In this document: one piece after another, positions 10,182 through 32,687 of the stretch
Numbering within the stretch: position 1 is the stretch's first letter
Layout of the letters: each line of letters begins with the position of its first letter
Assembly: GCA_044892525.1 (NCBI GenBank)
Contig: CM097887.1
Span: 18,786,001 to 18,850,000 of the forward strand
DNA from: Schmidtea polychroa
Lineage: Eukaryota
Reading direction: 5' to 3'
Length of the DNA stretch: 64,000 nucleotides
Notes under the pieces: model-generated
Seen by the model: the letters and a program-made list of their open reading frames with translations, nothing else
What the model was told of the DNA's origin: nothing
Databases searched by the model: none
Translations under genes and position numbers: made by a program

Positions 10182-10760
10182 TGTTGGGCTGAATCGAAGG
10201 GTATCCAAGAAATTAGGTTAAACATAATGAAATTAAAATAAAAATGAAACAAAAAACAAATTTAAGAATAAAATAGAATAGGATATAAGAAAAATAATAA
10301 ATTAGAAAATAAGAGTTAAAACAAAAAATATAAAAATAAGGAAAATTGAAATAGGACAATAGAATGACAAAAAATAACGTAAAATGTAGTAAATAATAAA
10401 GAAATTAAAGAAAATAAATAAAAAACACAATAAAAATAAAGAAAATAGGAAAAAATAACTCAAAAACAAGAAAAATAAATTAAAGCAATAAAATTAAGCG
10501 GCACTCAATTCTGATTGGTCCGCACACATCAAAAATTAATATATAAGGAAACACAAAAATTATAAACTTACAGTTAAACAACCAACTTTACAGGTAAGAT
10601 AAATTTTAACAGTTACAGTTAAACAACCAACTTTACAGGTACACAGCAACAACGTACGAGAATCAATCTAGAAACCAGGAGATATTATCAAACAGTTAAT
10701 AATCGACGTAAATTTCGAGTAACCATTTATTCGATTCGATACCTCCCGACTCAGCCTATA
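10182..10760. mobile_element. Possible solo LTR or TIR element
   Basis: Begins TGTTGGGCTGAATCG and ends CGACTCAGCCTATA (imperfect inverted termini). It has a purine-rich interior and an internal direct repeat TTACAGTTAAACAACCAACTTTACAGGTA twice (about 10568 and 10612). Confidence 0.4.
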
Positions 10761-10929
10761 AATCTATACAAATTACTTGGTCAGGGATTTTTCGATTTAT
10801 GCTTTTATCTAAGTAATAGTAGTCATGTAATTTTATGAAATAATTATAAATTTAACTGAAAATAGTTTCCTTTTCGTTTGATTCCTAATGATAAATTTGC
10901 TAATTAGATGATTTAGTTATTCAATAAAT

Positions 10930-12266
10930 GAATTATTATGAACTTTTTATGATTGATTTTCATGCATTATTATTTAATGATTATAAATTTCCGAGAAACG
11001 TGGCGTTGAGAAACTCCATGTCATGGTATGAGGTGCCTTCGGGAGCTCGGCCGGTGGACATGGCGTTTTTCAATCACGCAGCTGATTCGGGCCGTAATGT
11101 GGGGGCTTCCTCACGGGTCCGTCGCTGAAGATGCGACTAAAATAGGTGATCAATACTGTAGAGAGATGGTAACTATCAAGCAATGGGAAGTGTAGGCATA
11201 TGAGGAAAAATCTTGTTCGAGAGTTCGCACAGTGATTGAGGGCGTCATACTATTGTCTTTATCAAATTGAAACTGGTACTATCATCTGAAGATCTATACA
11301 GGATTCTCCGTTAAATCAGTCTGGACATCATTTGTAGCATATTATCTGCGTTCATGATTCCACTCGAAATTATTCCTGAAACCTTCAGCCTAAGGATCTT
11401 CACAACTGCTACTTTCATCATCTATATCCATCACGTGCAATCAACTTTGCTGCGTCTCTCTAAAAACCTACTTGTGGTGAATTGTGACAAACAAATAGTT
11501 CTCAAAAATAATAAACCATAAAATGATAATGAATATAGTCAGGAAAAATGTATTTATAAAAACAATCAAACATGTCATTCCCTTGTATATCGAATACCAA
11601 ACGTTTGTGGCAACTGATGCAAAGTTAGGATGGGAGGTAACTGATCCGATAGACCCTCCATGGGAATAAAATCCGAGTCTTAGAGATGTCACAGAGGATG
11701 ATGGAATATCCGCATTTCGTCGAATTGTATTTCCAGCGATAGTTAATAAATTTCCAACTCGATATAGACAGTGGGCATGTTGATGATGATAAAATCCATG
11801 AGGGGAGTAGAAATTATAGCTTGAATAGTTGACCAGTTTGTCTACGAAACGGATTACATCCAGTAATAGCGGTACGCAAAAGCTACCTATGCAAAATTTC
11901 CACGAGAGATAGAAATTCAACACGGTGTAATATAACATCTGATGATTCATGCAAGCTGCCAAATAGGATAAGAGTCTCACGAAGTGAGTACCCGCACACA
12001 TGTGTAAATGCACACATTGCAAGTTCTAATAGCCAAAATCCACATGCTGGTGCTCACCAATAATAACACGGATATCACTAGCCATAATTCTAAGAGCCTA
12101 TCTTCCAGGTGATACGTTCCTTGAGATCGCATAGTCATCTAACCCGATAGTAGATAATTCACCGCGAACGGCTAACTTGAGAAAAGTCCACCGGGTGTGT
12201 CATATAAAATCTCGGCTAATTACCGAAAGCACTAGACATGAGTGATGATAACACGAGTCACCAACA
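10930..12266 (+). mobile_element. Decayed LTR-retroelement relic ending in an LTR terminus
   Basis: GC-richer block with broken reading frames, ending ...GAGTCACCAACA like the other LTR 3' ends in the window. The 5' boundary was not identified. Confidence 0.45.
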
Positions 12267-12640
12267 ACTCAATAATTAATTTTAAAATAGTAAATAAATG
12301 TGAGATTTGAAAACAAAATTATAATAAATTATAGACAATATAATCGAAAGCCTAAATAAAATACAAACAAAATGCAACTCAATTAATCCAAGTCTATTAC
12401 TGGAACTGCAAAAATTTAATATTTTTGCTTAATGATGAATTAAAACCAACTTATCTAATTATCTATAAAATCATTATAATGATTAGTTAAATTTTCACTT
12501 AGTAGTTATTTAGTTCGGGTTGAATTTTCAATGCTATTTACCCTCTTCAAGAAAAATTTCCGTCATCAATAATTCCTCTTAAACATGTAATTTTCATTTT
12601 CTTTAACAATGATGTACAACCTTCGTTAAGTAAAGCCTAA

Positions 12641-14140
12641 TGTTGTCAGTTGATTTTCTAGTGGGTAAACACCCAGAGTACGCATAGGTTGATGACATAG
12701 GAAATCCCTCTTGATAAATAATCCGTTTTTCTTTTCCTGTAAAAATGTCTAATATTGATTAACGAATGGTGGCGAAAAGTGATGATTTTCTAAATTTGAT
12801 CTACCCATTTAGTGTTATTATTCTTCTTAGCTAGCAGACATGTTACCCACTGCAAAAACCGTCCTCAGACCCTGTTTTTCTTGTTCCGACAAGAACGCGA
12901 TAATCAAGGACCTGCAGACCCAGATCGGACGGTACAAAAAGAGGATAGACGAGTTAGAGGGGACATGGTTTAGTCCCTCCCAGATGAAAGAGACCCAAAA
13001 GAAATTACACCGAAGTGAACATTGCCGGGACGCTCTAATCTCCGAGAGTCGTGCCCAAAGAAGTTTGATCAAGGAGCAGTCCGAGGCGCTGCATAAAGTG
13101 TACATCCAGGCCGCGGCAACTAGAAGGATAGTGAAAATTCCCATCGGTGAAGCCGACAATCTCTTTCCGGCCCACCATGATACTTCTGCCAAATCGTCGC
13201 TCCCTTCGAAAAAACCTTGCCGGCCGTGCGTAGAAACGCAACTCTCGCCAGAGCAACTGGAGGTGGTTTTTGTTGGAAATAGTCGGGTACTGCCTAACGT
13301 CGCCTCTACATCGGCGGTAGCCCCAAACAATTCATCGACCAACAAGCCAAAGCGTCGGCAGCTTTCAAGGGCTGAACGCAAAAGGAAACAGCGTGAGCGA
13401 ATAGCTGCGAAGCAGCCCAAGCAACTGCCGGACCTCGGGAGTAATGTCAATAACGTCCCTGCTGTAATTGACCTAACAGCAAGAACACCTGGGCGGATCA
13501 TATCTGCCGCTGGGGTGACGTGGGAGGAAAACGCCTCCGAATTCTTCAATTTGGACGAGTTACTCGCCGACTCCGAGTGGGAAAAATGAGGATTTTCCCG
13601 TGAGATGACCTCATCCGTCGGAGAGTCCTGAATCAACTAACATCGTTTCCTGTCCTTGTGTTTTCTCTTATTCTAATTCTAATGTATAAAGTACGACGCG
13701 CCTGTATTGCAATGTTTGAAATAAACAATTTTTGTCTGTATACGGGTTTTGATTTTCGTTCATAAGGGATTTAACATTGAGTGGTAAATAGCATTGAGGT
13801 TTTTGAGATTCGAGGAGTACTGTTCAATTTGCAATCCAAACCAAGGGTACGGCGACAGGGTGACAGAATGTGTAGACGTAAGTCCTTCTATCGGCAGTCA
13901 GGGTTAGGAAGTCGGGGTCTCAGTGAGGAGTAGTCCGAAGGTGGCTCACCTGCTCACTGGCACCTCGCCATCATAGCACAGTTCCAACGTGAAGCAATTC
14001 ACGGGTGCTATGTTGGAGTATAGGTTATGTACGGGCCCTGCTCGGGGTGACACAGTAATGACAGGTATAATCGTAACGGGCGTTCATCCCCTAGGCTAGA
14101 AAGTTGAACTAAGGGTGGTCAACCGTGTAGTGCCCCAACA
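12641..14140 (+). mobile_element. 5' LTR (1500 bp)
   Basis: TGTTG...CAACA termini, TATAAA at 13685 and AATAAA at 13720. It is followed after 7 nt by the PBS. Confidence 0.85.
12840..13589 (+). CDS. Intact 249-aa ORF inside LTR U3 (CxxC, coiled coil, basic NLS-like tract, VIDLT SIM-like motif, acidic/aromatic C-terminus)
   Basis: ATG-initiated open frame upstream of the LTR TATA box. Related peptide tails occur in LTRs at 3-122 and about 29360-29517. Confidence 0.7.
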   Translation: MLPTAKTVLRPCFSCSDKNAIIKDLQTQIGRYKKRIDELEGTWFSPSQMKETQKKLHRSEHCRDALISESRAQRSLIKEQSEALHKVYIQAAATRRIVKIPIGEADNLFPAHHDTSAKSSLPSKKPCRPCVETQLSPEQLEVVFVGNSRVLPNVASTSAVAPNNSSTNKPKRRQLSRAERKRKQRERIAAKQPKQLPDLGSNVNNVPAVIDLTARTPGRIISAAGVTWEENASEFFNLDELLADSEWEK

Positions 14141-14147
14141 TAATTTT

Positions 14148-14165
14148 TGGGGGCTCAGCCGGGAT
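14148..14165 (+). promoter_or_regulatory. Primer-binding site complementary to the tRNA-Pro 3' end
   Basis: TGGGGGCTCAGCCGGGAT matches the classical tRNA-Pro PBS TGGGGGCTCGTCCGGGAT at 16 of 18 positions. Confidence 0.85.
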
Positions 14166-14471
14166 CTAGATTGAAATTTCCATTGACTAGTGCGAACTTG
14201 ACTGGGATTTATTATTGAAATTTTGTCGAATAGTGTGAATTCACCGGGATTAGTGATTTTAATTAACTGGCGAATGCAAATTGACTAATGCTTATCGAAT
14301 CTTATTAGAAAATCACGATTAGAAAATAATAAAATTAAAGATATAAATAAAGTAACTTTAATAATGGAGAAATAAGATAAAAGTAAGATAAAGTATAACG
14401 ATTTAAAAGGAAAATGTTTGATGAAACAACCACTAATTAGTTATGTATGACTAAAACATTTTTTTATAGAC

Positions 14472-14957
14472 ATGAAGGAATTCGTGGACCAGATACAACA
14501 ACTAATCAACTTCATAAACATCGAGAATGACTCCTTTAAAACGCTGACACAAAAGAGAGAAAGAATTAACATCATACTACTCCAAGCAATCGGGCAAACA
14601 CCAGTCGTCCCCAACCACATGTTATTAGCCGCAGGACTAAGTCACCCAGATGGGAAGATAAACCCTGAAACCGTGTATCAATGGTATCAAGAGAGATTGA
14701 ACCACCCAGCATTAAATCTTGATTATCAACGTATAAAAGATCCATTAAGTACCATATCAGATACAATCGAGCGAAAAATACAAGAAAAACTGACCCTACT
14801 ACGAACTTGTCTTGCTTGTAAACTTCGTCCTATTCGCGTACTGTTCTTGCCGTGTGGACACCTCAGTCACTGCGAAGAATGTGTGAACAACTTAAAACGA
14901 TGCCCGATATGTAAGCATGAGATAAAAGAAACTCATATGGTTTATTATGGTGAATGA
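14472..14957 (+). CDS. 161-aa protein with C-terminal IAP/MDM2-type C3HC4 RING finger (putative E3 ligase)
   Basis: CLACKLRPIRVLFLPCGHLSHCEECVNNLKRCPICKHEI at the C-terminus. A splice-acceptor-like TTTTTTTATAG lies just before the ATG. No BIR repeat is visible. Confidence 0.9.
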   Translation: MKEFVDQIQQLINFINIENDSFKTLTQKRERINIILLQAIGQTPVVPNHMLLAAGLSHPDGKINPETVYQWYQERLNHPALNLDYQRIKDPLSTISDTIERKIQEKLTLLRTCLACKLRPIRVLFLPCGHLSHCEECVNNLKRCPICKHEIKETHMVYYGE

Positions 14958-15519
14958 ATAGTTAAAGATACAATAACATTTATGAACATTGAATTAATAC
15001 GGGCGATTGAATGAGAATAAGTGTAATTGATGTGTGAAATTTTATTAAAGCTTCAATTTTATTTTTATGACGAATAAAATTTTGTTACGAACTGAGTAAT
15101 TTATGGCTTTTAATTCTATTTTATAATTTTTTTTGAATCAAACGAAAAGAAAATCAAACTAATGTGGAATTAGTCCCAATATAGGCTGTAAGGGTACAAA
15201 CCGAGCCACCTTCGGGCGGTACGTTCTATCATACGAAAAAAACCAATTGGGAGGGGATAACCGATCAATCTAAGTAAGAAGCGTAGGGCGGGGTACCATC
15301 GCAAATGATGAAAAGTTTCTGCGGTGTGACTGATCACCATGCCAATGTGGAAATGGATCATCGCGATCGTCGTGCGTTTTGAGCAAGGGGGGAAAGGGGA
15401 AACACTCTCAAGCGGTAAAGATCAGGTCGAAAAATTAAAAGTAGAGACAGAGAAAATGATAATTCAGGGTAAAAGAGGAAAAGAGAAGTAGAAGCATGCA
15501 GAGTGAGGAATATTAAAGC

Positions 15520-15967
15520 CGAGCTGTTGAATAGTCCAGCCGGTCAAGGAAAATGAAAACTGAGCTGTGAAAAGTCCAGCCAGTTCGGAGAGATTAAGAT
15601 CGAGTTGTTGAATAGTCCAACCGATCAGAAGGAAGAAGATTGAGCTGTTGAATAGTGCCAGCCAGTCGTAAGATCGAGTTGTTGAATAGTCCAACCGATC
15701 AGAAGGAAGAAGATTGAGCTGTTGAATAGTGCCAGCCAGTCGTAAGATCGAGTTGTTGAATAGTCCAACCGATCAGAAGGAAGAAGATTGAGCTGTTGAA
15801 TAGTGCCAGCCAGTCGTAAGATCGAGTTGTTGAATAGTCCAACCGATCAGAAGGAAGAAGATTGAGCTGTTGAATAGTGCCAGCCAGTCGTAAGATCGGG
15901 TTGTTGAATAGTCCAACCGATCAGAAGGAAGAAGATTGAGCTGTTGAATAGTGCCAGCCAGTCGTAA
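15520..15967. repeat. Tandem array of five 74-bp units (40+34-bp dimer) plus diverged leading subunits
   Basis: Units start at 15601, 15675, 15749, 15823 and 15897 and are almost identical. Both subunits share the core GAG(T/C)TGTTGAATAGT(G)CCA(A/G)CC. Confidence 0.95.
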
Positions 15968-17292
15968 AGGCCTAGAAAACCAAGAGATAGCAGTTAAGCT
16001 AAAATGAGATAATATTTAAATTAATAGTGAAATGGAATATTAAAGCTAGCTAGAAACAAATTGAATGTAATTACGAAAATTTGAGTTTAGAGAGGAAATA
16101 AACGAGCTCGTGGAAAAGATGATAGGATTATAATGAAAAAAGAAGGGGAAGAAGGAAATGAATTAAAGAGATAATGGATAATAAAGAATAGGTGAAATGA
16201 TGATAATGAGTAGAAGAGGAAAGTAACTAACTAATTAAAGGGATCCCAGTGAAGTAGAGAAACTCTACGGAATAATTTTTTTGGGTAAACCGGAAAAATG
16301 CATTTTTATTGGTTCCAGAGTAGAACCGAGTGGGATAATAGTAAATATGAAAAGTAAAATAGCGGCAACAGCGCAAAAGGAATAAGAAAACGAAGGGGGG
16401 TAATAAGCAGAGACCGACAACGACCTATTTATATTATAATTGATAGCGAATAGATAATTATTACGACTTTATAGATAATTGTTACTACCCCATATAGATA
16501 ATTTAAAATCGACGAAAAATACGGGCTGATGGGAAATTATAACCCGCGGAAAGGATTTCACAAAAGATAGGGGAAGCACAAACAGAAACCTAAAAGGTGT
16601 CTGTGTTTGAATGTTGCAGAAAGAATGATGAAGTCGTGTAAGCAGATGCAACACGAGATCATTTTTTCATTTTAGATATCAAATCAAGCCAGCCAATCAA
16701 GCCAATCCAGAACCTGCACAAAAGGAATTCGAGGAAATCGACAATCGACCAAGAATAAATCCATTCAGAACCCGCACCAAGAAACCCAGCAACCGGAAGA
16801 CTCCAGAACGGAAGAAGATACAGATAGCGACATCTCCAACTTCGAACAAATCACCGATATATTCAGCCTCATAGTATTAGCAGCCATCTGCCAAGGACTA
16901 GCAAATCTCCTCAGAATCTCAGTAGCAGATTCATACAGAATACTTTTCGAAGGAAACGCAATCAGATCCGAACTCGTCCGGTTCAGTAGCCGCTAATTAC
17001 AAAGAAGCGTAAGAAAGGAATCACGGATAAACCCAATCTTAGATCGTCAAGTAAGACAAGAGACGTATTATTTTCAGGAGACGAATTACAACAACTCAAA
17101 AGAGGACGATCTATTAAACATCAAAGAGGAATATCACAAGGAGCAAGAAGAACCAACCAAACAACCGTATTTGACCAAGAAAATCTCGAATACACCCCTA
17201 GTCGATCTCAAAGCAGAGAAAGTCTGTCCGACATCACTAATAGTTTAGCAACGTCAACCGAAGAACTATCAGCCCAAAGTTTAGTCACATCA

Positions 17293-18657
17293 TTGGATAA
17301 GTTAAAAGAAACAGACGAATCTAGAACACCAATCATGACGAATGTCGTAAAAACCGACGAGTATAAAGAAAAGTTCCGAGGAGAACCGTTCAATGGAAAT
17401 GCAAACAAGTTAGCAACGTTTATAACTAATTTTGAAGTTTATATCACGGTGTGTGGATGGATACCCGAAGCAATTAGCAAAAGGATGCCGTTGTTTTTGT
17501 GCGATAGCGCATTAGAAGTATATTTAGAAGCTAAAGAGAGAGATACGAAATTAGAGAAGTGGGAAGATATCAAAACATTCTTGAAGAAAACCTTCGGAGC
17601 CAGTAAGCCAATCAACCAGGCGTTGGGCGAACTAGCAAATAGGAAACAAAGAGCGAACGAATCGATAACATTATATGCCAGTGAATTAAGAAGATTGGCG
17701 AAGAAAGCAATGAATGGGAAATTACCCGAGGAAAATCTGATTGGCTATTTCATAGAGGGATTACGCCGAGAGGAGGTAAGAGCCTCAGTAGGTTGTCAAA
17801 TGTGCAAAACGTTAGAGGAAGCCATAGACTGGGCTACAAGATGCGAGCTCCACCTTCCAGCTCAAATGAATATTATGCAAGAGGATGGGAGGATAGCGAC
17901 AGCAATAGCGAAAGCGGATAACGGAGATAACAACAATCAGGAACCGAAAATGAATCAATTTATACCAGGAGCGCATCAAATTTTCAAACCACCACAAGGA
18001 CGATCAAATGGGAATAATGGTAATCGTAACAACTTGAATAATGAGAACAATTTTAATAATCGACGAAATATGAACGATAACAAGCAGTGCCGAACATGTG
18101 GTAAACCAGGACACTGGGACAGAGATTGTTATAGAAACGCAAATTGTAATCGTTGCGGACGGCGTGGACATACGGAAAATAGATGCCAGTTGAGAGGTTG
18201 TTTTAACTGTGGTCAGCCAGGTCACATCTCCAGAGACTGCCGAGAAAGGGACCAACCACAACGACCACCACAACGAAATACTAATTACATGTCGAATCCG
18301 CAACGACAAAGCAACCCTAGTGAAGGAAAACAAATGAACGTTATGCAGGAAATCTCACAAATGAAACAGATGATGCAACAGATGATGAGACCAAGACAAG
18401 AACCAGCACCACAACAAACCCAGAATATACGTATGATGAGGAGTACCGAAAATCTCAATAGTTATGAAGTACATCAACATGTACAAGAATGGCAAAGACT
18501 ACAGGCCGAGGAAGAGAGGATAAAACAAGAACGCAACCAACAACGACAAGAACAACCATTGCGAATAAATATGATGAAGTTAGTAAATGACATGAAAAGC
18601 CAGTACTGCTACAATTACGGGAAAAACCTAAGGGTAGTACCCATGACTGAACCATAG
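17293..18657 (+). CDS. gag: Gag: retrotransposon capsid domain plus three CCHC zinc knuckles
   Basis: PFNG...FITNFE...W...L.DSALEVY...WEDIKTFLKKTF, QRANESITLYASEL and FIEGL capsid motifs. Knuckles are CRTCGKPGHWDRDC, CNRCGRRGHTENRC and CFNCGQPGHISRDC. Confidence 0.95.
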   Translation: MDKLKETDESRTPIMTNVVKTDEYKEKFRGEPFNGNANKLATFITNFEVYITVCGWIPEAISKRMPLFLCDSALEVYLEAKERDTKLEKWEDIKTFLKKTFGASKPINQALGELANRKQRANESITLYASELRRLAKKAMNGKLPEENLIGYFIEGLRREEVRASVGCQMCKTLEEAIDWATRCELHLPAQMNIMQEDGRIATAIAKADNGDNNNQEPKMNQFIPGAHQIFKPPQGRSNGNNGNRNNLNNENNFNNRRNMNDNKQCRTCGKPGHWDRDCYRNANCNRCGRRGHTENRCQLRGCFNCGQPGHISRDCRERDQPQRPPQRNTNYMSNPQRQSNPSEGKQMNVMQEISQMKQMMQQMMRPRQEPAPQQTQNIRMMRSTENLNSYEVHQHVQEWQRLQAEEERIKQERNQQRQEQPLRINMMKLVNDMKSQYCYNYGKNLRVVPMTEP

Positions 18658-19290
18658 AAGGTAAAAGAAACGACAACGGAAATGAAAACAGAGAATTCAA
18701 CCACGATCTTAAACGGGAACCAGAGAATTCAGAAAATATTCTGGAAAAAGATAAAAGATAAAATCGAAAAAGAATATAATAAAGCGAAAACCGAGACAGA
18801 AGAGGAAAATAACAAGAGCAAGGAACAAGCCAGTCAACCAAACCGCCAAATGCTACAGGAACGGGAATCTGAGGAAACAACGATATTCGAAAATAGAAAA
18901 CTAAAGAGGGTACCTAGGATGAGAAATTTGCGAATCAACATGATGAAAAGGACAAAAGGTACGTCGTCCTCAGACGAAGACTATGTGAGCAGTTTGGGTG
19001 GAGAAATACTCGAAATCGAAGAGGAAGAAGGCGAAAGCGAAATAACCAGCGGAAGTGAAGACGAGGATATAGAAATAAAGTTGAGAAAAGAGAGGGAGGA
19101 AGCGATAAAACAAGTAGCTGAAATACTCCCAGTAGTAGTGAGGAACCAAGAGTTCATCGATATAATACCATTCAGACGATTCGTGCAAAAAGTGATGAAA
19201 TTGGGAAGAAACGAGAAAGATTTAATACCAAACGAGGAAAAATCAATTATAAAAAATTATATGGAAAAAATGAAGCAGGCCGATACCACG

Positions 19291-19512
19291 CGGTATGTAA
19301 TAAAAATCGGAACGAGTAGAGGACTTGAAAGAATGTGGATTAAAAATACAGTCACCGACGAACTTTTCGATTGGATACGAGAACATTTGGGAAGTTCGAG
19401 AAAGAAAGAATATCTGTATCAATACCAAGGAGAACAGATCAAACCAGATATGCACTTAGTGGATGCACTAATATGGCCAGGAGAAACGCAAATACTGAAG
19501 TTGCACAAAGAA
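19291..19512 (+). other. Ubiquitin/SUMO-like domain 1 in polyprotein
   Basis: RYVIKIGTSRGLERMWIKNTVTDELFDWIREHLG...YLYQYQGEQIKPDMHLVDALIWPGETQILKLH follows the beta-grasp pattern. Confidence 0.5.
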
Positions 19513-19808
19513 AAACAACCAGCAAACCTGTACGATTGGGCTAAAGATGCCAAGGCGAATATGATTTTAATATCAAATTGAAGTTAGAACAAATAAAGCA
19601 ATGTACTCTGAGACGAAACCTGGACAAGCTGATCAAACAAATTCAAGAACAAGTGGAAGACAACTGGGATTTACTCATCACCAGACGAGCCCCAGCCATG
19701 TACGAACTAATGAGCCGGTTGCGAGATACAGAATTGCTCCGAATGAGTGATTGGAGAACCATAAATTTGATCCACAAATATGGAAGGTTAAAAGAAACCC
19801 AGCCGCAG

Positions 19809-20063
19809 AGGTTGGAAATAACCATATGGTTACCGAACGAAGAGAAACGACGAATAAAAATGAGCAATCAGAGTACAGTGGATGATTTGGTATCAAAGAT
19901 AAACCAAGAAATAACGGAAAAGGTACGTAGCGAAAGTAGTGATGGTATGGTGGATGATGTAGTCATGATGTACGATAAAATAATATTACGAGCGGAAGAC
20001 GACACCTCGTTGAGCGAAATGGGTATGTGGGACGATCATCAGATAATCAGGATAGTACCAATG
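19809..20063 (+). other. Ubiquitin-like domain 2 in polyprotein
   Basis: LEITIWLPNEEKRRIKMSNQSTVDDLVSKINQEI...VVMMYDKIILRAEDDTSLSEMGMWDDHQIIRIV parallels the ubiquitin pattern TIxxVKxKI...LIFxGKxLxDxxTLxDxxI. Confidence 0.65.
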
Positions 20064-20756
20064 GATGAATTTCGAACAAGAGACGTAACGTATCAAAAAG
20101 AAATACGAGACCGGATGAAAACGTTATATCAAAAATCTACAGAAATAATTGAAATTCACCAACGATGGTTAAAAGAAAAGGAACTACGAGGAAAAATCAC
20201 GAAACTAAGCACCAGATCCTGCAGACGAACCCCGTGGGAAAGAGTGTGGGATATAGAAAATAAGGAATGGGAAATCCGGAAAGGAATCTTCGTAGAAACA
20301 GACATTGGGGAGACAGAAAGTGAATCGGAGGAAGAAGAAGAGGAACCCCCAGAATATGAAGAGGAAGCAAGGGGACAGATCTCAGATGACGAAAGCGAGA
20401 CGGATGTCACGTCAGAAAGCGAAAATGAAGCGAGACATATTCATGCAATGCGGAAAAAGGAACGTGAATATGCCGATATGGACGGCGAGGAAGCGACAGA
20501 AGCAAGAGAACGAGAAGAGAAAGAAAGATATAAACAATTAGGCGATATCTTAGCAATGGGAGCGAAAAATCAAAAACGTCAGGTAGTAGCATTGGCTAAT
20601 ATCATCTTAAAGACATCAGAAAATATCCACAATCTGAGAGAAATGGCGAAAGTAATAGAGGAATACCGGCAATATAATGAATGGTATCCAGAACAGCTAG
20701 AACAAATTATTCGAAAATGGAGAAATCAAGAGTGGGCACAAGACACCCAGGAGAGG

Positions 20757-20960
20757 TATCACATCCGAATCAAGTATCCGGACAAGAGCATTGAAGAACT
20801 AGAAGTACATCCAACAACGAAAATTAGAGAATTAAAAAAGAAATTAGCATATGAAACTCCATTCCATCTGCAACTATTCGGAAAATCACTAGACGATAAT
20901 GTAGACGTCGGAATAACACCCATGAGATTAGAAGAGACTACTGTGCTAACAGTGGCGGAA
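20757..20960 (+). other. Ubiquitin-like domain 3 in polyprotein
   Basis: YHIRIKYPDKSIEELEVHPTTKIRELKKKL...LQLFGKSLDDN aligns with ubiquitin LEVEPSDTIENVKAKI...LIFAGKQLEDG. Confidence 0.7.
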
Positions 20961-21587
20961 ACGTTGGGAAAACCGTTGAAAAGGAAAAGCAAAATTAATA
21001 AACCAACAAAAGGTAGTTTGAGTACTCCAAGTCCAAACCAAGCCCCAAGTAAATCTAATGAAACTGAAGAAGTTGAAGAGATTATCCTCGAAGATAGTGA
21101 CGACGAACCAGGAGAAAGATCACCGCTATTAGTGAGATGGCCAACAGGAGCCGAAATATGGACCAACAACCAACCATCAACAAGTTATCAACAACCAACG
21201 AAACTGAACATCAAGGAAATCGTCGACAATACTACAGAAACCGAAACGGATGAACGATTCCAGAAGCAAAGAGAACCAACAAAAATAACACCGGAAGGTC
21301 AAACTGATAAAATAATAGATGAGTGGAATGAGTGGCTGAGAAATAACGATAGCTCATTACCCAGAACAGATAACGAAAGAAATCCGAATTACGAAAATAC
21401 CAGAGAAGCTGGAACGATGATGGAAAAACGGGCAAAAGGAAGACCTAAGAAACAAAGAGAGAAATCTGAGTTCAAAACCAAGGAACAAGTAAAACAAGAA
21501 CAAGGACAAGTTCGATTGGAAAAGTTAGATAAAATAGTATGGGATCTAAAAGAAGCTCAACCAACGATCGAAAGAGGAGAAAAATGA

Positions 21588-21975
21588 ATACGAGAATTGA
21601 TCAAAGATATGTTAATAATAACAAATCCACAACTTAGACGCTTGTGGCAACGGAAAGTAGCCAGTGTAGAAGCTAGACAATTATGGCACATCGTATCGGG
21701 GATAATCCCAAAGCTAATCAAAGAAAAAACGAAAACTACCAAAACGGATTGGGATGAAACCAAGAGAGTGATTGAACAGCTCACGACAAATGCAAATGAT
21801 GACGAACATCATCTAGTAGTAATCACTTAATTGATGTATAATTTGATGGGATTAGCTGCAAGGAAAATACCTAATAAACAGTTCGCAAATCACGTAGAAA
21901 TGACCGTGTCAATCATAGAAAACACTATTGAACCCCATATTATCCGTGCCGGAGGATGGAAAAGACTTATACAAA
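21588..21975 (+). other. Bcl-2-like domain (one in-frame stop)
   Basis: BH2-like IEPHIIRAGGWKRL (cf. Bcl-xL LEPWIQENGGWDTF). Helix spacing from RVIEQL to GGW is within one residue of Bcl-xL QVVNEL...GGW. The NWGR of BH1 is not conserved. Confidence 0.65.
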
Positions 21976-22081
21976 CGCCACGAAAAAATGAGCAAGAAAG
22001 GTCGATGCAAGTTAGATTGAAAAAGCTGTTAAATGAACTAGAATGGGAACTACCGATGAAAGATCCAGCAAGCAGAAAAGC

Positions 22082-22298
22082 ATCAATAAATTCGTTAGTG
22101 ATGACTATGATGATATGGATGTTGTGCACAAGTGGAGCAACGGGTTTTACCATCTACGATTGTGATAATATGATAATGAGAGATAAATACTCATTGAGAG
22201 ATATAGAAGAATGCAGACAAGCATCACCCAACAAATTGGACATAGTAAAAACAAAAGTTACCTACCATGTATATCAAGAATCAGATTTCATCACCTGA
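22082..22298 (+). other. Signal-like hydrophobic segment and start of env-like glycoprotein
   Basis: SINSLVMTMMIWMLCTSGATG followed by FTIYDCDNMIMRDKYSLRDIEEC. This YDC...SL.D..EC pattern opens env-like ORFs of several invertebrate gypsy elements. Confidence 0.55.
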
Positions 22299-23286
22299 TT
22301 GATTTAGATATTTTCTTTTTTCGGTGATACTTTTGTTTTTTCTGTATTAAAATATTTCTTTTGCAACTGCTTGTGCGTAACAATTTATTATTTTGTTTTA
22401 TTTATGTTTAATTGGTGTTTTTATGTTGAGCGGCTTCGCATTAGCCTATTATTTATAATTACTATAAATGTAATTTTAATCAATATTTTACTCGGGTTCC
22501 CCTCGCAAGATGTCGTTCATTAGTTACATAATTCAACCCAACATATGCTTTTCAAATAATCCGTGAAGGATGGACACCGAGAGACTTATGGAGCATCATT
22601 TATCAACACTCATAAAGCTTGTTTTATGACAGATCCAATCACAAAATTTTATTCTATACTAAAAAATCTCAAAAATATTATCACATCTCTTAATTTCAAA
22701 ATACCCACAATAAAGGTTTAATTTGTTTCTAGGTCACCCCAAATTAACTCATTTAAATTGTAATAACACACTTAGTGTGACACTACAAAAACATCCATCT
22801 AAAATCGCACTAATTTCCGTATATTGTATTGTCCATTTAACATTTCTGAATCATTAAACAAATATTACAATGCCACATTGTAGTGGTTAGAAATTTGCTT
22901 GCCAAACATATTTATGATGGAAAATTTCACCACAAATGTTTTCTTATAATGATCTGATTTCAACACATTAACATTTCAATATAGGCTAAGCATTTGATAA
23001 TTTAAAAAAAATCTTTAATTGGAATGTTAAAACAAAGTCGAAATAAATGAAATTAACTACGTAATGACATTAATAAATATTTAATATTTCTATTTTTAAA
23101 ATAATGCAATTTGTAAATTTAAAATTGTATTTACCAAAACTGTTTGCTACATAAACCGCCAAAAATTTTAAATAATTTTTAAACAAATTTTGATTTCATT
23201 GTTAACAGTATAATTAATCATCCAAATAAAATTTAAAATAGCACCATAAAATAAAACTTTATTTTATTAAATAACACATTTTATCA

Positions 23287-23849
23287 TTACTCCTTAAGCG
23301 TAAGCTTATCATATAAGTAGGTTCCAACTCCTGGTCCGTTTCGACGAATATTTGTTAGATGATCAGCTATTTCTTTCATTGAATCTACTTGTTCTTCCAA
23401 AAAGTCTTCCAGGTAATCAGTCATTTGTGGATCATTGTGTGTCTCAGCTATTTTGTGCAAATTAAGCAATGACTAATACAAATTGCTCATTAAGTAAAAA
23501 ACTATAAGTGATTTTGAAGTCATACTTGATTAACTTCTTTTTCAAGAGTTAGCGCAGTCTCAAAAGCTGTTTCCGGAGTCCATTCAACAATTGAAGGTTT
23601 GGCAATATCTTTAAAAACAATTCTACCACCTCGTTTATTTTGGTATTTCATCAAATTTTCAGCATGTTCTCTTTCTTCTAGTGATTGTTTGTGAAAAAAA
23701 TGACTAAAACCTTGAAGAGCCACATCATCTCGATTAAAATAAAAACTCATAGCTTGGTACACATAACTTGCATGAAGTTCTTTGTTAATTTGTTCATTAA
23801 TACCTAGTTCAGATTCAGAGTGAAAATTCTGTCGCACTTGAGAATTCAT
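23287..23849 (-). CDS. FTH: Cytosolic H-type ferritin, 169 aa, two exons (23526-23849, 23287-23472)
   Basis: Ferroxidase residues are present (KELHASY, EEREH, LEKEVNQ, LEEQ). A 53-nt GT..AG intron at 23473-23525 joins NQ|SLLNLH in frame. No signal peptide. Confidence 0.97.
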
Positions 23850-24702
23850 GATTTATGAAATTACTTAAATTTCAACTTACAGTTGCTTAAATACTTTGTG
23901 TGTGTGTCTAAGTACTGTATGTGTGCAATGAATGTGATTGCATAATTTTCTCACACACACTTACAAAAAATCACATTGCACGTATGTAACTTAAATTTAT
24001 AAATTCTATTTGTAAAATTTAAATTTTAAGATTTTGTATTTTATTTATTTGAATTTTTTAATATCCAAATTAATGTTAACATTTTTCTAATTTATTTGAG
24101 AGAATTTGACTTAAGTAAAGCTGAAGTTGCAAAATATTAAAAATATCAAAAATATTTTATATCGGCCGAAATTATAAAAAAAATAGTCGTGAATAAATGA
24201 AAATTTATATAGCAATTATGTAATTTAAACAATACAATTTTGAAAATATTTAATATTTTTTGATTAATTTTTATAATTAGAATTTCATTATTTAATTTTG
24301 TAAGTCGTTTTTACAAATTGTAGTTGTTATGTTTACGAGAATAATCCTAGCAGTTATTTCTTTGTATACTTCAGGTCGTCCTTCGGGTATCATTCTGAAC
24401 TCTAGTTATCCTATATCACACACTATGGTAATTTATGAAACCTTATCAAGTGGTTCAATAATGTATGTGTTACTTTTCGAATGCACATCTGAACTCCATT
24501 TCAAATTTGTATGAGATTTGACCGTGTCAATTTTTCGAATAAAAGTCATTTACAAAAAGAGTTACTGTGCAATTTGTCTAGAATTCGAAATGGAAAATAA
24601 GTCAATTAAGAAAGTATTGCGTGTCTAAAAGTGTCAGAAACAGAAAAATTAGAAATATTTTGCTTTTCAATAAAATTAATTTTAAATTCTTATAAATACA
24701 TT

Positions 24703-25618
24703 TGTTGAGGTTTTGAAATTGAATGGCGGTCAAGCAGGGAAGCAATGGCAAAGAAAGATATGATAAAAACATAACTATAAAAGGGTACAATCAGACATGA
24801 AATGGAAAAATGCTCAAACCTGAGGAAGTGGAATAAAATGAAAAGTTATCGAAATTGAAGCTGGAAAATGGGAGAGGGGTAGATTAGTGTATGGTGAAGA
24901 AGACAGTGATCAAGAAATTGCTAGAAAATGTTTAGAAGGGGTCGTAAAACAGGCAGATAAAAAACCCAAAATATTAATTAATTAATTAATTGGCTAATGG
25001 AAAACCCGAGCTAATGGGAAGCCCGAGCCAATGGAAAAGCCGAGCGCGGCAATTTGGGAGGATAAACAAATGGGGAAGTCAGAGAGCAATTATCCAAACA
25101 GCCGGATAAACGAGGGTAAACAAAAGAAGGGGAATCAGGAAGAGGGTCAACAGAAATAGCTAATTAGGGAATGATAACTAAGGAAGTCAAAACCAATTAG
25201 GTCAAAAATAGGGCAATTACAACGATTATGGGAATATATAAGGAAACTCCAAATTCACATAATTGGCAATAGCCTTAGGTAGGGAAGAAGAAACCGACAT
25301 TAGAAGTTAAAGGAATAGAATAAAAGAAGAAAAAGAATTATAGGAAAAACTGAAGAGTTAGACAAGGAGCGTTAAAAAAGATTGGATCAGAGAGTGGAAC
25401 TAAATCAAAAAGTGAAACTTAATTTTTTAATCGTACAAGGTTGAGACCTTCCAGAGCAGAGTCCGATCTGAAATTGTGTGAGAATCAGCTGTGTAATTAA
25501 TTGTGAGAGTTAAAAATTTTTATAAAACAAATATACGTTGGGAGTTTGTGTTTATTGATTTTGGAACACGTGGAGTCAGAGTAACCAACGGTTGATTTTG
25601 ATATCATAAAACCCAACA
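24703..25618 (+). mobile_element. Solo LTR (916 bp)
   Basis: TGTTGAGG...ACCCAACA termini and perfect 4-bp TSD CATT. Homologous to 50801-51839. Confidence 0.92.
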
Positions 25619-25923
25619 CATTTATTTTCCATCGAACAAAAGCATAAAATACATTTACGATTTTGGAAGAAAACAAAGAAGATCAGAAACTGAGGTAACA
25701 ATCATGGAGAGCACTAACAAACGCCTGCTACGGTATAAGAATAAGAATCACCGAGTTTGGGAATCGATTATGAAGTTGACTTCCCTTGATTTTTATTTAT
25801 TTTATAATTTCCGAAAACAGAGTTGTATACTTGAGTTCTCTAACTTGTATAAGAAACACGAAAGATGATACTTTGATTCAGAAATGTGTTGAAGTTACTC
25901 CACAAAATTAAGATGATTATTGG

Positions 25924-26309
25924 CAGTGGTGAGCTATGCATGTCCCGCGGGGGCTTGGCAGAGCCCCTTGTTAACTTTTTAAAAATTTTGCGAGCCCCTT
26001 ATTGTTCTTTCAACTGTGATTTTGCGCTTCACTTCAAATTAAAGTTTCTATTGTTTTAGTAGGAAAGCATAAAATATAGAACTTTTTTTTTCTAAAATCA
26101 AAATATAGAAACTTTTTTTAATATAAATAATTTTAAAGATTATTTAAAATTTTCGATTTTTTACGATATGTGATATCATTTTTATGGTTGCTGATTTTGC
26201 AGAGGTGTTTGGAAATTATTCGACGTAAATAATGTTTTCGGCAGAGCCCTTTGTTAACTTTTTAAAAATTTTGCGAGCCCTTTGTTGTTTTCTTCAAAAC
26301 TTACCACTG
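25924..26309. mobile_element. hAT MITE with an internal ~42-bp direct repeat
   Basis: TIR CAGTGGT(G/A)AG / CTTACCACTG and perfect 8-bp TSD ATTATTGG. GGCAGAGCCC.TTGTTAACTTTTTAAAAATTTTGCGAGCCC occurs twice. Confidence 0.9.
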
Positions 26310-26622
26310 ATTATTGGTCGAATTTCCATGCAAAGAAGTTATGAAAAAATGCAACAATTTAAGAGAAAGAATCAGAAAGAATACTTATATAATGATAAGG
26401 AAAGAATTTCCTTAAAATGACTTAAGGATTAGCGAAAGAAAAAGAAAATAAAGTTAATAAGTAGTCTGATTGTTTTAATCAATTAATAGAATGTGTGAAA
26501 CTATTAGTGCACTGAGTGACAAATTATAAGTTTATGTGTCTACAAATAAAATAATTTTTAAAAAAATAAATAAATTTAATTTATCTAAAATAAAATGATA
26601 CATGGAATTGTCCGAATATTGT

Positions 26623-26809
26623 TCAAATGTTATTAAGATTTGTTGAGTCGATCTTGATGTCTCGTGGTTCGGGATCAACTGGTGACTTTAATTTGTTGTT
26701 CTCTGCGAAGATGTTGAATCGAAATTTCCCAGGCTCCGTCTTATAATATTTGGTCAGGACGAATGTTTCGATGGGTCTACCCTCATCGTCCAACACAAGA
26801 TCAATATTT
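26623..26809 (-). CDS. Candidate terminal coding exon of an unidentified gene
   Basis: A polypyrimidine tract and AG precede an open frame NIDLVLDDEGRPIETFVLTKYYKTEPGKFRFNIFAENNKLKSPVDPEPRDIKIDSTNLNNI*. Upstream exons were not identified. Confidence 0.4.
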
Positions 26810-26988
26810 CTTTGAAGAGAGTAAAAACGAAAAAATGTATTAAAACAAGAAATTATGAATTAATTAATTAGGAAAAGAGATTTCCTATAAATCCTATATA
26901 TACTAATAAAACCCATAATATAGACATTTATTGAGTTTTTGTAAATTTTTATTTCTGTACTTTTCACATTTAATTATTCACTTTTCTG

Positions 26989-27060
<72 letters not shown>
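26989..27060. repeat. (TA)n microsatellite
   Basis: Direct reading. Confidence 0.95.
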
Positions 27061-27063
<3 letters not shown>

Positions 27064-29134
27064 GTTATTAATTCTGTCTTTGATAACATTTGATATATTT
27101 TTTATAGTTGTTACAAAAATACATTTATCCTTTCGATGTTTAGATAAGTTTATGTAGGATAAATGTAATAGTGACTGATAAAAATGTTGGATTTACTGTT
27201 GGTTCTACCAGAGTGACCACAAGTTCATGAGAATTAAAAATGAAAACGATAAAAACTTTTACTATAACTATCTCACAAAAATGAATATCTGAATTTGTAA
27301 AGCCATTATTGAGCAACATTTAGTTTGCCAAATAGATAATAAATACCTCAATTTGAAAGTAAGAGATATCATATTGGAATTTATAAATAGATATTAATTT
27401 TATTGTTTTTATTTGGTCATACTTTATATCAACTAAAAGTGTATTTAAGCGTTTTTGGAAAATAATTTGCCGAAATAAATGTTAAAAATCTTTTATCGGT
27501 TTTAACGAGCCCTCGTTAAGTTCAAGTTTAGCAGTCATTGAAACACTGATCACCCTTGCTTAATTACCCAAGACGTGTGGCTCCAGACAAATGTAGGTCT
27601 GAAATGGGTGCCTCATACCTAGAATAGTAGTTTATGTAAGTGAGTAGGTATATGAATGTGTTAAGTTATTAACAGCTCAAATTCAGGAGCTAAAACGAAG
27701 TAATGAAACATAGTTGCAAAAATTCATCTATATGTTGCATAAAGGTCAATTTGAAAACTCATCTATAATAGACAAATATCTTCGAAAAGGAATAGATTTC
27801 GTATGAAAATTTGATTAAGATAAACCATCAATCTTTTGACAATCAGTGGACCACTGTTGAACATTTTATATTCAAGGAATGATTTTCGAATGATAACCAG
27901 AGTATTCAATGATTATTGTGATTGAACATTTTTTATGATAATTTTTGGAAAAGGATGATCTAATAAACTTTCATCATTAAATAATTTGTATTACTTGATA
28001 TATTATCAGGGGTTTGTAGTTCAATTTGGTGGGTTTGCATGTGTATATTTTCATGATGCAATAAAATTAATTGAAAAACTCTGGCTCAACTATAAGTACA
28101 AACTATTAGTAACATTTGAAATATCAAGAATTAATTCAAGGTTTTGATAAATTTACTTGAAAATATTTCCACAGTAATTTGGTTAAAAATTTTATAAGTT
28201 CTTATTTTTTATGGAAAGTAAATTTTATTAATTATATTATTTGTGTTGAAATAAGCTAAAAATTATTTGTTGTTTAATAGTAATATTTAAAACAATTAAT
28301 TTGAAAAATAATTTAAAATGGCGTTGTTCTTGTGTTTAACAGTTCTGTGAGATTATGTTTATTTTCAAAAACATTTTGACTTCATGTTTGTCCTTAGAAG
28401 ATCAAAGCAAGTTGATTAGATTTTCTAATGTAAGTTTTTATTATTTATTTACGTAAGTGATTGCTTATGGTACTGAAATTAGAACCATTTAAACTGAATT
28501 ACATAAATTGTTGAACTTGAAAGGGGTCTTTATAAATGAAATTTTAAACTGTTTTCATCTATTGAATAAATTATTAATATTTTGTTATATATAACATTTT
28601 AATATTTATTTTATTTATTTGATTCATTCTTTGAATATAAATTATTCTTTATCTTGTTTTAAATATAGCATTGATATTGCTTAATATTCTCTGAGTATGC
28701 TATATATTAAATATTAGTGGTGCATATGCTTGGTATCCGACTTAACAATGGCATTTCGTTTTCCGTTGAAAGGCTAATTATAAAACATGGATTTGTATAG
28801 TCCATCTTAACTCTTGAGAATTCTCCAAAGCCAGATAAATATACACCAAACTTACTAATGAAAAATATTTATTATACATTCAAACATTCATAATAATCAT
28901 TATTTCAATGCACTTAAACTTCATTTCAAAAATAATGTTTGATGCTTTTAATACTCGGTATAATGTAAGGCGGTAATAGGGCTGGTAGTTCCGTTATGTA
29001 CAATTTATGGGGAGATGAGCTTTTCTCACATGATCAACTTCATTATATAACAGTCAGTGATGAGAATATTAATTAAAATTATAAATAAATTAATTGAGGA
29101 TAAAACGTCAAAGAGGGACATTTTTAATGTCAAT

Positions 29135-29898
29135 TGTTAATTAAAAAAAGAAATTTTTTTTGTTTAAAAATTGAGAAAAATTTCGTTGAGTTTTGAAGGA
29201 CTTTCATTTGAATGAACACATTTGAACACGTGCACACGTTGATTGACTGATGTGGAAGAGGAAGTTACAGAATCTTTCTTATATGGGGTGGACAAATGCT
29301 CTCGAAGCTGATCATTAATATCTGCACACATCTTTAATTCGGCTTGAAATTGTATCTGCTGAGAAGGAAATCAATTTCATATGTGCAACGGTTGAGCACA
29401 TGCTGAGTGAAATGTCAGACGGCTGGCCGAATCATCTCACTCTGAGCAACCTCTCGGGCCACCCCAAAGATTTCGATGTGGACGCTCTATTAGCCGAAGT
29501 CGAGAGGTACGGGTGGTGACAATCTCGGTCTCTCTGAGGAGATTTTGTTCTTTGATCTTTGCGAACTTTTCTAATGCAGCTTCGTGTGTAAATATCGAAA
29601 TTAAAATGTTCTTGTGTTGTTGTTTTCTTCTAGAATCAGGTTTTCATTAGAATATAGCCAACGTAAATCAATACTCACCCAACAGTAGTAGATAAATACG
29701 ACGTAAGACCTATGGGACGCCTAGAACCCGTCAGAAATATTATGTTGGAGTAGTGTTAAGATAGGCGATTACCTGTCCTGTTATTTTTCACCGACGTTGA
29801 GCAGTACAAACCTGATCATGGCCAGGGGCTCTCTGTATAAGTCATGTGCGCCTACAGACTGAGACCATTGGTCAATTTTTACAATCCAAGCGCCAACA
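29135..29898 (+). mobile_element. Solo LTR (764 bp) with ORF remnant
   Basis: TGTT...AACA termini and perfect 4-bp TSD CAAT. The internal frame ends ...KDFDVDALLAEVERYGW* (TGA about 29516-29518). Confidence 0.8.
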
Positions 29899-32687
29899 CA
29901 ATAAAAACTAAGAAGCTTGGAATTAGCCAGTTAAAATTTTTGAACCCATTTGGAATAAGTATCATCACCTTAAGTTATATATATATAATGGAACTTGGTT
30001 AATTGAAAATATACTTAATAAAGGTTATAGAGCTACAGTTAGTCGTATAAACACCTCATTTATAAATTCAATTATAAATTCAAATCCAATATAATCAACC
30101 TGCTCATAATAATGCCGCAAAATCTGCAAATGAGACTCCATTATAACTTACAGGTAATGTTACAATGGGGATTGTAAGGATTATTATAACCATCTCAACT
30201 CAACCCTAAGAATATGTCACCAATATCATAGGAAGTGACGAAATAAAGGTTAACTCGCCAGGCAGTCAGTGGGTAACGAATTGGGCTTTAGTTCGCATTA
30301 TAATCCAATAGCCGGGTATATTATCGTCCCTGAAAATAAGTTGAGGTGGCACAGAACGAATCCTTATCGATTTAATTGATGATAAAAACGTGTTGATCAA
30401 CATAGTATGATATGCAATGATAAAATTGCCAAATGATCCGTGAGGATTGAACCATTTCAACCGACCTTGACCAGTGGGACTAGTTGGAACCTACGCTGTA
30501 AAGCCGGGAGCTACCAACTAGCCGTCACAGTCAAGATCGTTTCTGACGGTATTATAGAATCACATTTCCTAAAAATACCTAAAACTTAGTAAAAAGATGA
30601 TTAAATTAATAAATCTTATCCATTATGTGGATGAAGATGGAAACATAATATAATATAAAATATAAATATAAATAGCACCTACTAATAAATGAGTCAATTT
30701 AAACAATTATGAAATAAAATAAAATCATAAAATAGTTAAATAGTTCCAATAAAATAGTTAATTATAAGTAGTATAGCGTTTAAAAACTCGGTTTCGGTAG
30801 AAAACAAATTTGAAAATAATTTGTAAAATTAAAAAAAAATGATTAATCGGAAACTTTCCTTAAAAACTGATAGGCAGGGTGAATAGAATGGGGATGTTGA
30901 ATTAACTTAGATGTGAAAATAAATGACAATATGACAATACCTGATCAAATGAATGTAACTTGCAATAGATAGATAACGTAAAGTAAATATGGAGCTAGTG
31001 CATCAAACGAATCGATCAAAAGGCAAGTAGCAATGCGAGTGTGTATGTGAATGTTTGGTAAGCAAGGATATTTGGAGACCGTCACACACTAGCAAAAATT
31101 CGTCCATAAATTAGATGACTAACAACTGGCTCACGCTATCGCACACCGATTTAAAATACGGTACCTAAATTATCATCGATTTTCATTAAGCCAAAAAATG
31201 TCGATTCGCAAACAATGACATGAAGATTCAGGAGTCGGACAATCTTCTGCGAGTCGTTATTGAGCAGCCCAGATCGAGAGGGAAGAGGCTCAAACTCCAG
31301 CGAGCCCATTCCAAAGCGCTAGTGGCTATGGACCCGAATTCAAGCTTGGATTGACGGGTTCCGGATCAAACCCGACCGACAATCCAGAACGACTATGTAA
31401 TCCAGAGTGCCAGAAGACGATGAACATCCCATGATCGTTCTCAAGAGGGATTCTACCACGAATCCAGTCAGGATAGCACGGATCCAGTATTTTTGTTATT
31501 ATTTTTAAAACAATTTATTAAAAGATTTAATAAAAATAAATAAATATTGATTCATTTCTATTAATTATTAATTGTCACCATGTTTATAAATATGTCCATA
31601 TTTGTTTAGCTTTGGAGTCGGAGTCGTACTCTGAAAATTTCAACTTTTTTACGATTCCACACTCCTGATTTGTAACTATTTTCAATATTTTATAGTTATA
31701 GATTCAAATTTTATAATGATAATGTATATTTTTATAATTATTATAACACTAATAGCTTAATAATGATTTTATAATGATAATATTTAATGACCGTGCATCT
31801 GTTTTCATCAATTTTTTTATGAAAGTAATGAATAGTTATTTCATTATATATATATCATGTATCAATTTTTTTCCAATGACACGATCAAACTCCATTTTAA
31901 AAAACATCAAAAATCTTCCTCGTACACCAAATTCTATTCTTCCAGAAACATAAATCAATTCAAATTTCTCGCGTCTGTCTGCGCACATCCATATTACCAT
32001 AATTCTGCACACTAAAACCACGCCAAATCGGCGGAAACGTACACCCACACACAATAATAAATGCAAAATAAATGCATTTATAAATGCCTCATTTTATTAA
32101 TAATGATATTTTAAAATTATTGTGCTTCATCAATAGGCCACATTCATCAATGACATAATGATTACTAAATATTGTCGTCATAATTTTAATGTCCTAAATG
32201 CAAAACCTACCAAAAAGTTGAATATTAAAAAAAACATCAAAATCCATTTAAATCAATATAAAAAATAAAATAAAAAAGGTAAAAAATAATAATATTTAAT
32301 ATGAATAATAAAAATATAACAAAAAATATTAAAAAAAATAATAGAAAACCTGATTTTAATTTAAATAATATATAAAATAAAATTATTAAATTAGAATTGA
32401 AATAAGTGATGATGACTGTGTGGATATTGGAAATAAATCAGATTGGTTGATCTTTAGAGAACAAACAATTTATAGAATTTGATTTAAATTGCGCTATTAA
32501 ATCTATAATATCGATTGCAATTTAGTTAAAAATATATTTTTATTCTAAAACAAATAAAAAAATAATTTATTTAGAAAACATTTAATAAATTACACTGAAG
32601 AAATAACATTTGTATTATTTTCACAACATCTTTAGTTGGTTACTCGGTTATTGCGTACAGGATTTAATTTATGAATTGATTACTTAA

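Follow-up and report, generated by a model that had tools for sequence, protein, structure and literature searches.

A Burro-type virus-like retroelement in Schmidtea polychroa: the broken 5' portion of one copy of a young, multi-copy element of about 30 kb

What kind of locus carries on one strand an inhibitor-of-apoptosis protein (IAP)-type RING gene, a Gag, ubiquitin-like (Ubl) segments, a Bcl-2-like domain and the start of an envelope protein (Env), and do these parts belong together? We addressed this question for a stretch of 64,000 nucleotides of Schmidtea polychroa (assembly GCA_044892525.1, contig CM097887.1, positions 18,786,001 to 18,850,000 of the forward strand), hereafter the window, in which a preliminary description had seen a giant gypsy-like retroelement with a ubiquitin and apoptosis toolkit. 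What the locus holds is the damaged front end of a virus-like retroelement of the Burro type, which is young, present in many copies and about 30 kb long. We call its family A, and families B and C are relatives in the same genome. The interpretation that we hold with good confidence is that the copy in the window has decayed and lost its 3' part, that it belongs to a young Ty3/gypsy family, sister of a Burro1-like family, and that in other copies a RING ligase of IAP type, Ubl domains, a Bcl-2-like domain and a TRAF protein probably serve to damp death and signalling of the host cell while enveloped particles are made.

The window copy itself is dead. Its 5' long terminal repeat (LTR; 10182-14140, + strand, 3,959 nt, ending TGTTGGG...CCCAACA) aligns end to end, at 92-98% identity, with both LTRs of other family A copies. 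The unit had been placed on the + strand with an LTR start at 12641; the strand and the LTR hold, whereas the real LTR begins 2.46 kb further upstream. The internal region is 96-99% identical to other family A copies. The polyprotein, previously read as some 1700 codons, is not intact: the frame is broken by stops at 18655, 21585 and 21828 and shifts near 19551-19557 (compared with a natural copy, the first stop and the shift precede 19557 and the other two stops follow), and homology to family A ends at 22293, in early Env. Neither positions 22294-34000 nor the 9.9 kb past the window hold a family A reverse transcriptase (RT), integrase or second LTR, and none of 40 scored LTR matches is a partner LTR on this part of the contig. 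This copy can at most express an open reading frame (ORF) within the LTR and the RING ORF.

The other copies tell what the intact element looks like. A genome search with a 1.2-kb part of the LTR turned up 1,056 candidates at first look, 40 of which were scored; the RING ORF gave 3,605 (150 scored) and was free of stops in 145 of the 150, a block of identical copies included. We then took 40 copies, chosen by RING match across the identity range, with 9.9 kb of sequence each. All modules are present in 32 of them, and Gag with the three Ubl segments in 36; the remaining eight have deletions or interruptions or extend beyond the fetched stretch. The frame stays open from Gag through the BH2-like motif to the end of the stretch in 12/40. 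Two LTR-bounded copies measure 29,301 and 30,827 nt (the latter with an insertion of about 1 kb) and are flanked by 4-bp target duplications (ATTC, TATC). Their LTR pairs are 99.7-99.8% identical, so that their insertion is recent; a third pair is 99.4% identical over 885 nt. The order in full-length copies is leader RING ORF, Gag, Ubl1, Ubl2, Ubl3, Bcl-2-like domain, Env, protease (PR), RT, RNase H (RH), integrase (IN), ankyrin repeats (PF12796) and a tail with a second signal-peptide-like segment and a transmembrane segment. In two of the three copies followed downstream, the polyprotein frame runs for 4,732 codons from stop to stop, as computed from coordinates. Further 3' lie four ORFs, one a full TRAF (RING, zinc fingers and MATH) and three without a significant Pfam match. 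Burro-like elements have a dUTPase-like segment between PR and RT, for which a 120-aa piece gave no Pfam match (HHpred is the method of PMC6431247). The hallmarks of Ty3/gypsy elements are thus present, namely TG...CA LTR ends, a primer-binding site (PBS), target-site duplications and PR-RT-RH-IN, with Pol, second LTR and duplication found in the other copies only.

Could the modules instead have come together by chance, as a chimera, or has the host domesticated the locus as a gene of its own? The window copy is indeed truncated, with a ferritin-like gene 1.2 kb away. The copy survey refutes this: the order of the modules is the same in 32/40 copies, the window copy carries three stops and a frameshift, and its internal region recurs elsewhere at 96-99% identity. 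We consider such an origin extremely improbable.

Selection points the same way as the copy survey, which had yielded both the full-length copies and the accessory modules that the preliminary description expected. All the modules of family A are under purifying selection, with ratios of nonsynonymous to synonymous substitution (dN/dS) of 0.03-0.12 and bootstrap intervals for distant pairs below 0.36; these are Nei-Gojobori means over distinct copies, computed on non-independent pairs with the saturated ones left out. The values are 0.06 for the linkers, 0.06 for the Env start, 0.01 for RT and 0.10 for the TRAF ORF, with 0.05-0.26 for 3' ORFs (4-6 copies). The type of element, the identity of its modules and the idea of a selected cargo that manipulates the host thus stand as first described. 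In one pair of copies the synonymous divergence is about 0.9-1.1 in the RING ORF and 0.05-0.13 in the polyprotein, a difference which suggests that subfamilies have exchanged the leader by recombination.

The leader RING ORF (14472-14957, +) is intact in the window, as had been claimed, and encodes 161 aa with a C-terminal C3HC4 RING of IAP spacing (PF13920, E 1e-12). Its best matches in the PDB are the RINGs of cIAP2/cIAP1 (E 6.5e-12), with that of XIAP also matched, and dN/dS is 0.12 in the N part and 0.08 in the RING. In its RING it resembles cellular and baculoviral IAPs (cIAP1/2, XIAP), but it differs from them in having no detected BIR, UBA or CARD, its N part being a 110-aa segment. Pfam scans found no BIR in family A, and the BIR-bearing 300 aa of the family C IAP had no match at E 0.1 in 20 family A stretches. 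None of 384 candidates was a longer relative of the RING ORF, which says only that the library has no such proteins.

Upstream of this gene, behind the LTR, is the PBS (14148-14165, +), which is complementary to tRNA-Pro(TGG) of the host. In the genome its complement, with a T-loop in front, has 2,164 matches, and in one such locus all four genes called were tRNA-Pro(tgg). Genes for tRNA-Pro(TGG), the primer tRNA of family A, also form a tandem array with 475-nt spacing (G000:C1, near 130.9 Mb). The coding ORF inside the LTR (12840-13589, +) has about 250 aa, coiled-coil-like in its N half and basic in its C half, with dN/dS of 0.08 in the N part (20 copies, none with a stop) and 0.17 in the C part (23 copies, two with a stop); a homologue sits in the family C LTR at 24-34% identity. 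Since it is located within the LTR, it occurs twice per element and is present in solo LTRs. Two antisense LTR frames were rejected as genes, one of 269 aa (stops in 14 of 21 copies) and one of 185 aa (dN/dS 0.68, stops in three of seven copies).

The Gag announced ahead of the accessory segments is there, as a capsid (Retrotrans_gag) with three CCHC knuckles (17335-18270, +; PF03732 E 2e-10, PF00098 E 1e-10; dN/dS 0.03 for the capsid and 0.09 for the knuckles). Conservation of its frame reaches about 105 codons beyond the first ATG on the 5' side (17023-17334, +; dN/dS 0.19, 38 copies). This extension starts at an ACG codon, which is found in good context in all 39 copies (one offset by a codon), and none of the 39 has an in-frame ATG within the first 100 codons. 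Initiation of Gag at a non-AUG codon is the reading that we tentatively prefer, short of an even chance. The constancy of ACG is weak evidence for it: 3 of 14 conserved fourfold columns do not vary in any case, and family C has no ACG in the corresponding position. The rival is splicing into the Gag frame. A splice-acceptor-like TTTTCATTTTAG near 16677 is conserved in the family A copies displayed, and behind it lies a short ATG-less open stretch (16820-16996, +) that ends at a shared stop and is weakly constrained (dN/dS 0.52, 31 copies). RNA contigs from guessed runs cover the element, with no GT-AG joint among 15 shown of 68.

Three beta-grasp-like segments had been proposed behind Gag, and two of them stand with modest support for the fold. 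Ubl3 (20748-20969, +; dN/dS 0.05) matches PF00240 at E 0.003 and, by PDB profile, ubiquitin variants at E 0.026. Ubl2 (19800-20066, +; dN/dS 0.05) has sub-threshold Pfam matches to Ubl, UBX and RBD domains and, alone, no Ubl match in the PDB profile search; its model, of low predicted local distance difference test (pLDDT), gave in VIA a list dominated by beta-grasp chains (best Z 5.9, root-mean-square deviation 4.5, 74 residues aligned). Both rank first among untrained windows in leave-one-out profiles. Ubl1 (19279-19521, +; dN/dS 0.03), the segment with weak support, shows a beta-beta-alpha...beta order in a low-confidence model (pLDDT about 35-45), and neither Pfam nor the PDB profile gave a Ubl match; in the leave-one-out profile the family C Ubl1 heads the untrained windows (11.5 vs 8.6 bits), and the family A Ubl1 lies outside the top 12. 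The pooled profile, which presumes the alignment, finds the single Ubl domains of ubiquitin, ISG15 and ubiquilin at E 1e-7 to 1e-5. For the Ubl-Bcl2 region as a whole, no homologue at E 0.001 was found among 1.84 billion representatives, which says only that this library has none.

The next segment (21420-22010, +; two stops in the window copy) combines an AT-hook-like GRP motif with a Bcl-2-like helical domain under strong constraint (dN/dS 0.03), and the BH2-like GGW motif read in it earlier is present. Support for a Bcl-2 fold is modest. A profile built from three families retrieves Bcl-xL/Bcl-2 chains alone among the 60 matches listed (best E 0.005, Bcl-xL). In Foldseek the Bcl-2 family takes the top ranks, without significance: BAK comes first (probability 0.85, E 0.22), Bcl-xL also ranks at the top, and nothing reaches E 0.001 with either of the models. 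An Atlas search of the segment gave unnamed clusters at 0.75, and phmmer of the segment alone against the PDB gave no match. Bcl-2-like sequences occur elsewhere in this genome. Seven near-identical exons of the Bcl-2 family, the genome's best scorers, are clustered at G000:C4 near 90 Mb (L072-L078). Polinton-like elements (L096, L097, L099, L100, L101, L102) harbour further Bcl-2-like ORFs in many copies (PF00452, reaching 33 bits; for example L100 4706-5161, +), together with an A32-like ATPase, an integrase and an ORF that resembles TBP (PF00352, E 3e-16), and no description of these ORFs was found in the literature searched.

Behind the Bcl-2-like domain come the signal peptide and first 55 or so residues of Env (22071-22293, +), truncated here. 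The glycoprotein start with its signal peptide and YDC motif was thus rightly recognised, and belongs to a class III (gB/chuvirus-like) Env: PF24664 matches the window stub at E 0.0045 and longer copies at E 1e-68 to 1e-72. Env is in frame between the Bcl-2-like domain and the protease, PF24664 being followed by PF00077.

Two relatives in the same genome help to interpret this layout. A search for Bcl-2 led to family B (L084-L095, L103), with one Ubl, a Bcl-2 homologue (PF00452, E 2e-5 to 9e-5), Env and Pol in about 3,050 codons; its polyprotein is followed by an overlapping ORF of 530-720 codons in another frame. A search for BIR led to at least 150 copies of a BIR-RING ORF of 392-393 aa, which lies in family C (L126, L114, L127, L122, L128, L129), an element of 35.8 kb with LTRs of 5.2 kb. 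Its order is Gag-Ubl1-Ubl2-MATH-Ubl3-Bcl2-Env-Pol-ankyrin, then a 3' TRAF and then the BIR-RING, so that it has two RING genes (a RING-only leader and the 3' BIR-RING) and two MATH domains. It shares with family A the leader RING ORF, the PBS for tRNA-Pro, the LTR ORF, the ATG-less Gag extension, Ubl1-3, the Bcl-2-like domain, Env, Pol, ankyrin repeats, the tail membrane protein and the 3' TRAF, but differs in the MATH between Ubl2 and Ubl3 and in the BIR-RING ORF after the TRAF. The RT of family A is 86-88% identical to that of family C and 46-47% to that of family B, and in a quick RT tree A is sister to C (SH-aLRT 100). The phylogenetic placement sought earlier is thereby obtained in part, this tree holding no named Burro, Osvaldo or Mag references. 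Outside RT, families A and C are 40-46% identical in Ubl1-3, 35% in the Bcl-2-like domain, 59% in Env and 27% in the leader RING.

How might such an element work? Cargo directed at the ubiquitin and death pathways would help infected cells to survive. A single translation product would be threaded through the membrane of the endoplasmic reticulum. Bcl-2 proteins are tail-anchored, and the Env signal peptide, once cleaved, would anchor the Gag-Ubl-Bcl2 part by its tail. Through the Env transmembrane segment the chain would then get back to the cytosol for PR-RT-IN, and a further surface protein would be set free by means of the second signal peptide and its transmembrane segment. Since the leader RING is BIR-less, it could not bind caspases as IAPs do; it would more likely act by pairing its RING with that of IAPs of the host or the sister family, or on substrates that its helical N part binds.

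Several points weigh against this interpretation. The Env signal peptide falls below the hydrophobicity cut of 1.6, so that the tail anchor is suggested by our reading of the sequence. The Bcl-2-like domain of family A alone is sub-threshold in Pfam (E 0.046), its model (pLDDT 58) scores Z 5.9 in VIA, tied with unrelated helical proteins, and hhalign against family B gives a probability of 5.7%, the alignments being too shallow for this to be informative. NWGR, the BH1 motif of Bcl-2 proteins, is absent, and anti-apoptotic activity may therefore have been lost or changed. The case for Ubl1 as a Ubl is weak, and the label Burro1-like for the sister family follows from domain layout.

An alternative is that the accessory domains serve structure or assembly (as spacers, a membrane tether or ESCRT/ubiquitin budding adaptors) and have no influence on apoptosis in the host. 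They lie in frame within the Gag precursor, 1:1 with the capsid, their linkers are constrained like the domains (dN/dS 0.06 vs 0.03-0.05), the Bcl-2 similarity is confined to the BH1-BH2 region, and family A has no BIR-RING, the carrier of the function reported for Burro1. However, the leader RING, the TRAF and the Bcl-2-like domain all belong to death/TNF signalling, a Bcl-2 domain before Env is kept in three families with 47-88% identity in RT, and the Burro1 IAP is reported, second-hand, to protect stem cells (PMC13465017). A purely structural role thus seems unlikely to us, though it deserves some weight, and dampening of host cell death and signalling is the role that we prefer.

The surroundings of the window copy contain other features. 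Its leader has 74-nt tandem repeats (15521-16041, +; repeat family D2). The exon of the ferritin-like host gene 1.2 kb beyond the truncation point lies at 23520-23852 (-; PF00210, E 4e-25). Copies of a repeat that also sits inside another family A copy occur at 4520-4943, 24832-25044 and 50801-51839, and hAT-like transposase ORFs were read at 49683-52246. The stretch at 33681-36589 (+) was rejected as part of the family A copy: it is another decayed gypsy element, with RT and integrase pieces and 66% DNA identity to family A.

Is the architecture new? It had been put forward as possibly so, and this does not hold. Section 7 of a 2019 review (PMC6431247) describes Burro as an element of over 30 kb with a 4,873-aa ORF1, three Gag knuckles, MATH, a Ubi2/SUMO-like domain between MATH and BCL-2, an in-frame Env before PR, ankyrin repeats and BIR; it proposes meddling with apoptosis and ubiquitination, and says that Burro2-4 carry similar motifs. 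The accessory domains, the Bcl-2-like one included, that the preliminary description named for Burro are thus on record, and the Ubl triplet and the upstream RING ORF, which it put forward as possibly undescribed, are both shared by Burro1-like family C. Protection of stem cells by the Burro1 BIR-RING is credited to Lee et al. 2026 as cited in PMC13465017, and expression and piRNA control of BURRO1 are treated in PMC8532177 and PMC11410931. The Ubl triplet, the RING-only leader ORF, the LTR-borne ORF, the ATG-less Gag extension, the tail membrane protein and tRNA-Pro priming were not met in the literature searched, outside which stand Grohme 2018 and Lee 2026, which may cover the RING ORF, the Ubl number and the LTR ORF.

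Six S. mediterranea elements with GAG-ENV-POL order and an HSV/gB-type Env, Smed_errantivirus_1-6, have also been described (PMC13524379), in a main text from which the words 'ubiquitin', 'accessory' and 'Burro' are absent. Family A might be the orthologue of one of these (number 5) or of Burro2-4, in which case its layout would not be new. Among three compared by eye count, its Env is nearest to Smed_errantivirus_5 (82/157, 52%; number 6, 68/157), and the similar motifs ascribed to Burro2-4 in PMC6431247 would fit as well. However, families B and C match their counterparts far better (132/155 or 85% for B with number 3; 112/157 or 71% for C with number 6). As the match of family A is well under these, a separate lineage is suggested, and we give orthology with a named element only slightly less than an even chance.

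The general phenomenon is therefore already published, and the value of family A is comparative. A thriving family without BIR-RING and without MATH in the polyprotein is a natural control for distinguishing host-benefiting from element-serving Burro cargo, and it adds testable details: three Ubl-like segments, a RING-only leader, an LTR ORF, an ATG-less Gag start, a tail membrane protein and tRNA-Pro priming. One might speculate, at long odds, that Burro-type elements are endogenous enveloped viruses with one non-AUG-initiated polyprotein (Gag, three Ubl, a tail-anchored Bcl-2, a fusogen, Pol and a second surface protein) and an LTR-borne gene, split into a BIR-bearing, host-protective lineage and a BIR-less one. 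The BIR-less family A would then free-ride on the sister IAP, or antagonise it, by means of a RING-only protein swapped between subfamilies.

Compared with known systems, family A shares with Smed_errantivirus_1-6 the GAG-ENV-POL order and the gB-type Env; it has a PBS for tRNA-Pro, whereas the main text of PMC13524379 lists no tRNA primer for these six. With Burro1/GYPSM1 and Burro2-4 of Schmidtea mediterranea it has in common a length of about 30 kb, one polyprotein of about 4,700-4,900 aa, three CCHC knuckles, a Ubl just before the Bcl-2-like domain, an in-frame Env between Bcl-2 and PR, ankyrin repeats, tandem repeats, accessory ORFs and TRAF/MATH cargo. Unlike Burro1, it has no MATH in the polyprotein, MATH being confined to the 3' TRAF ORF, and no BIR in the 20 stretches tested; one Ubl is named for Burro in section 7 of PMC6431247, and families A and C have three segments. 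Family C is called Burro1-like because its layout fits that of published Burro. Because this sister family shares the modules of family A and adds the MATH and BIR-RING of Burro1, family A is, with Burro compared by layout, a reduced Burro1 relative and a further member of the published Burro kind.

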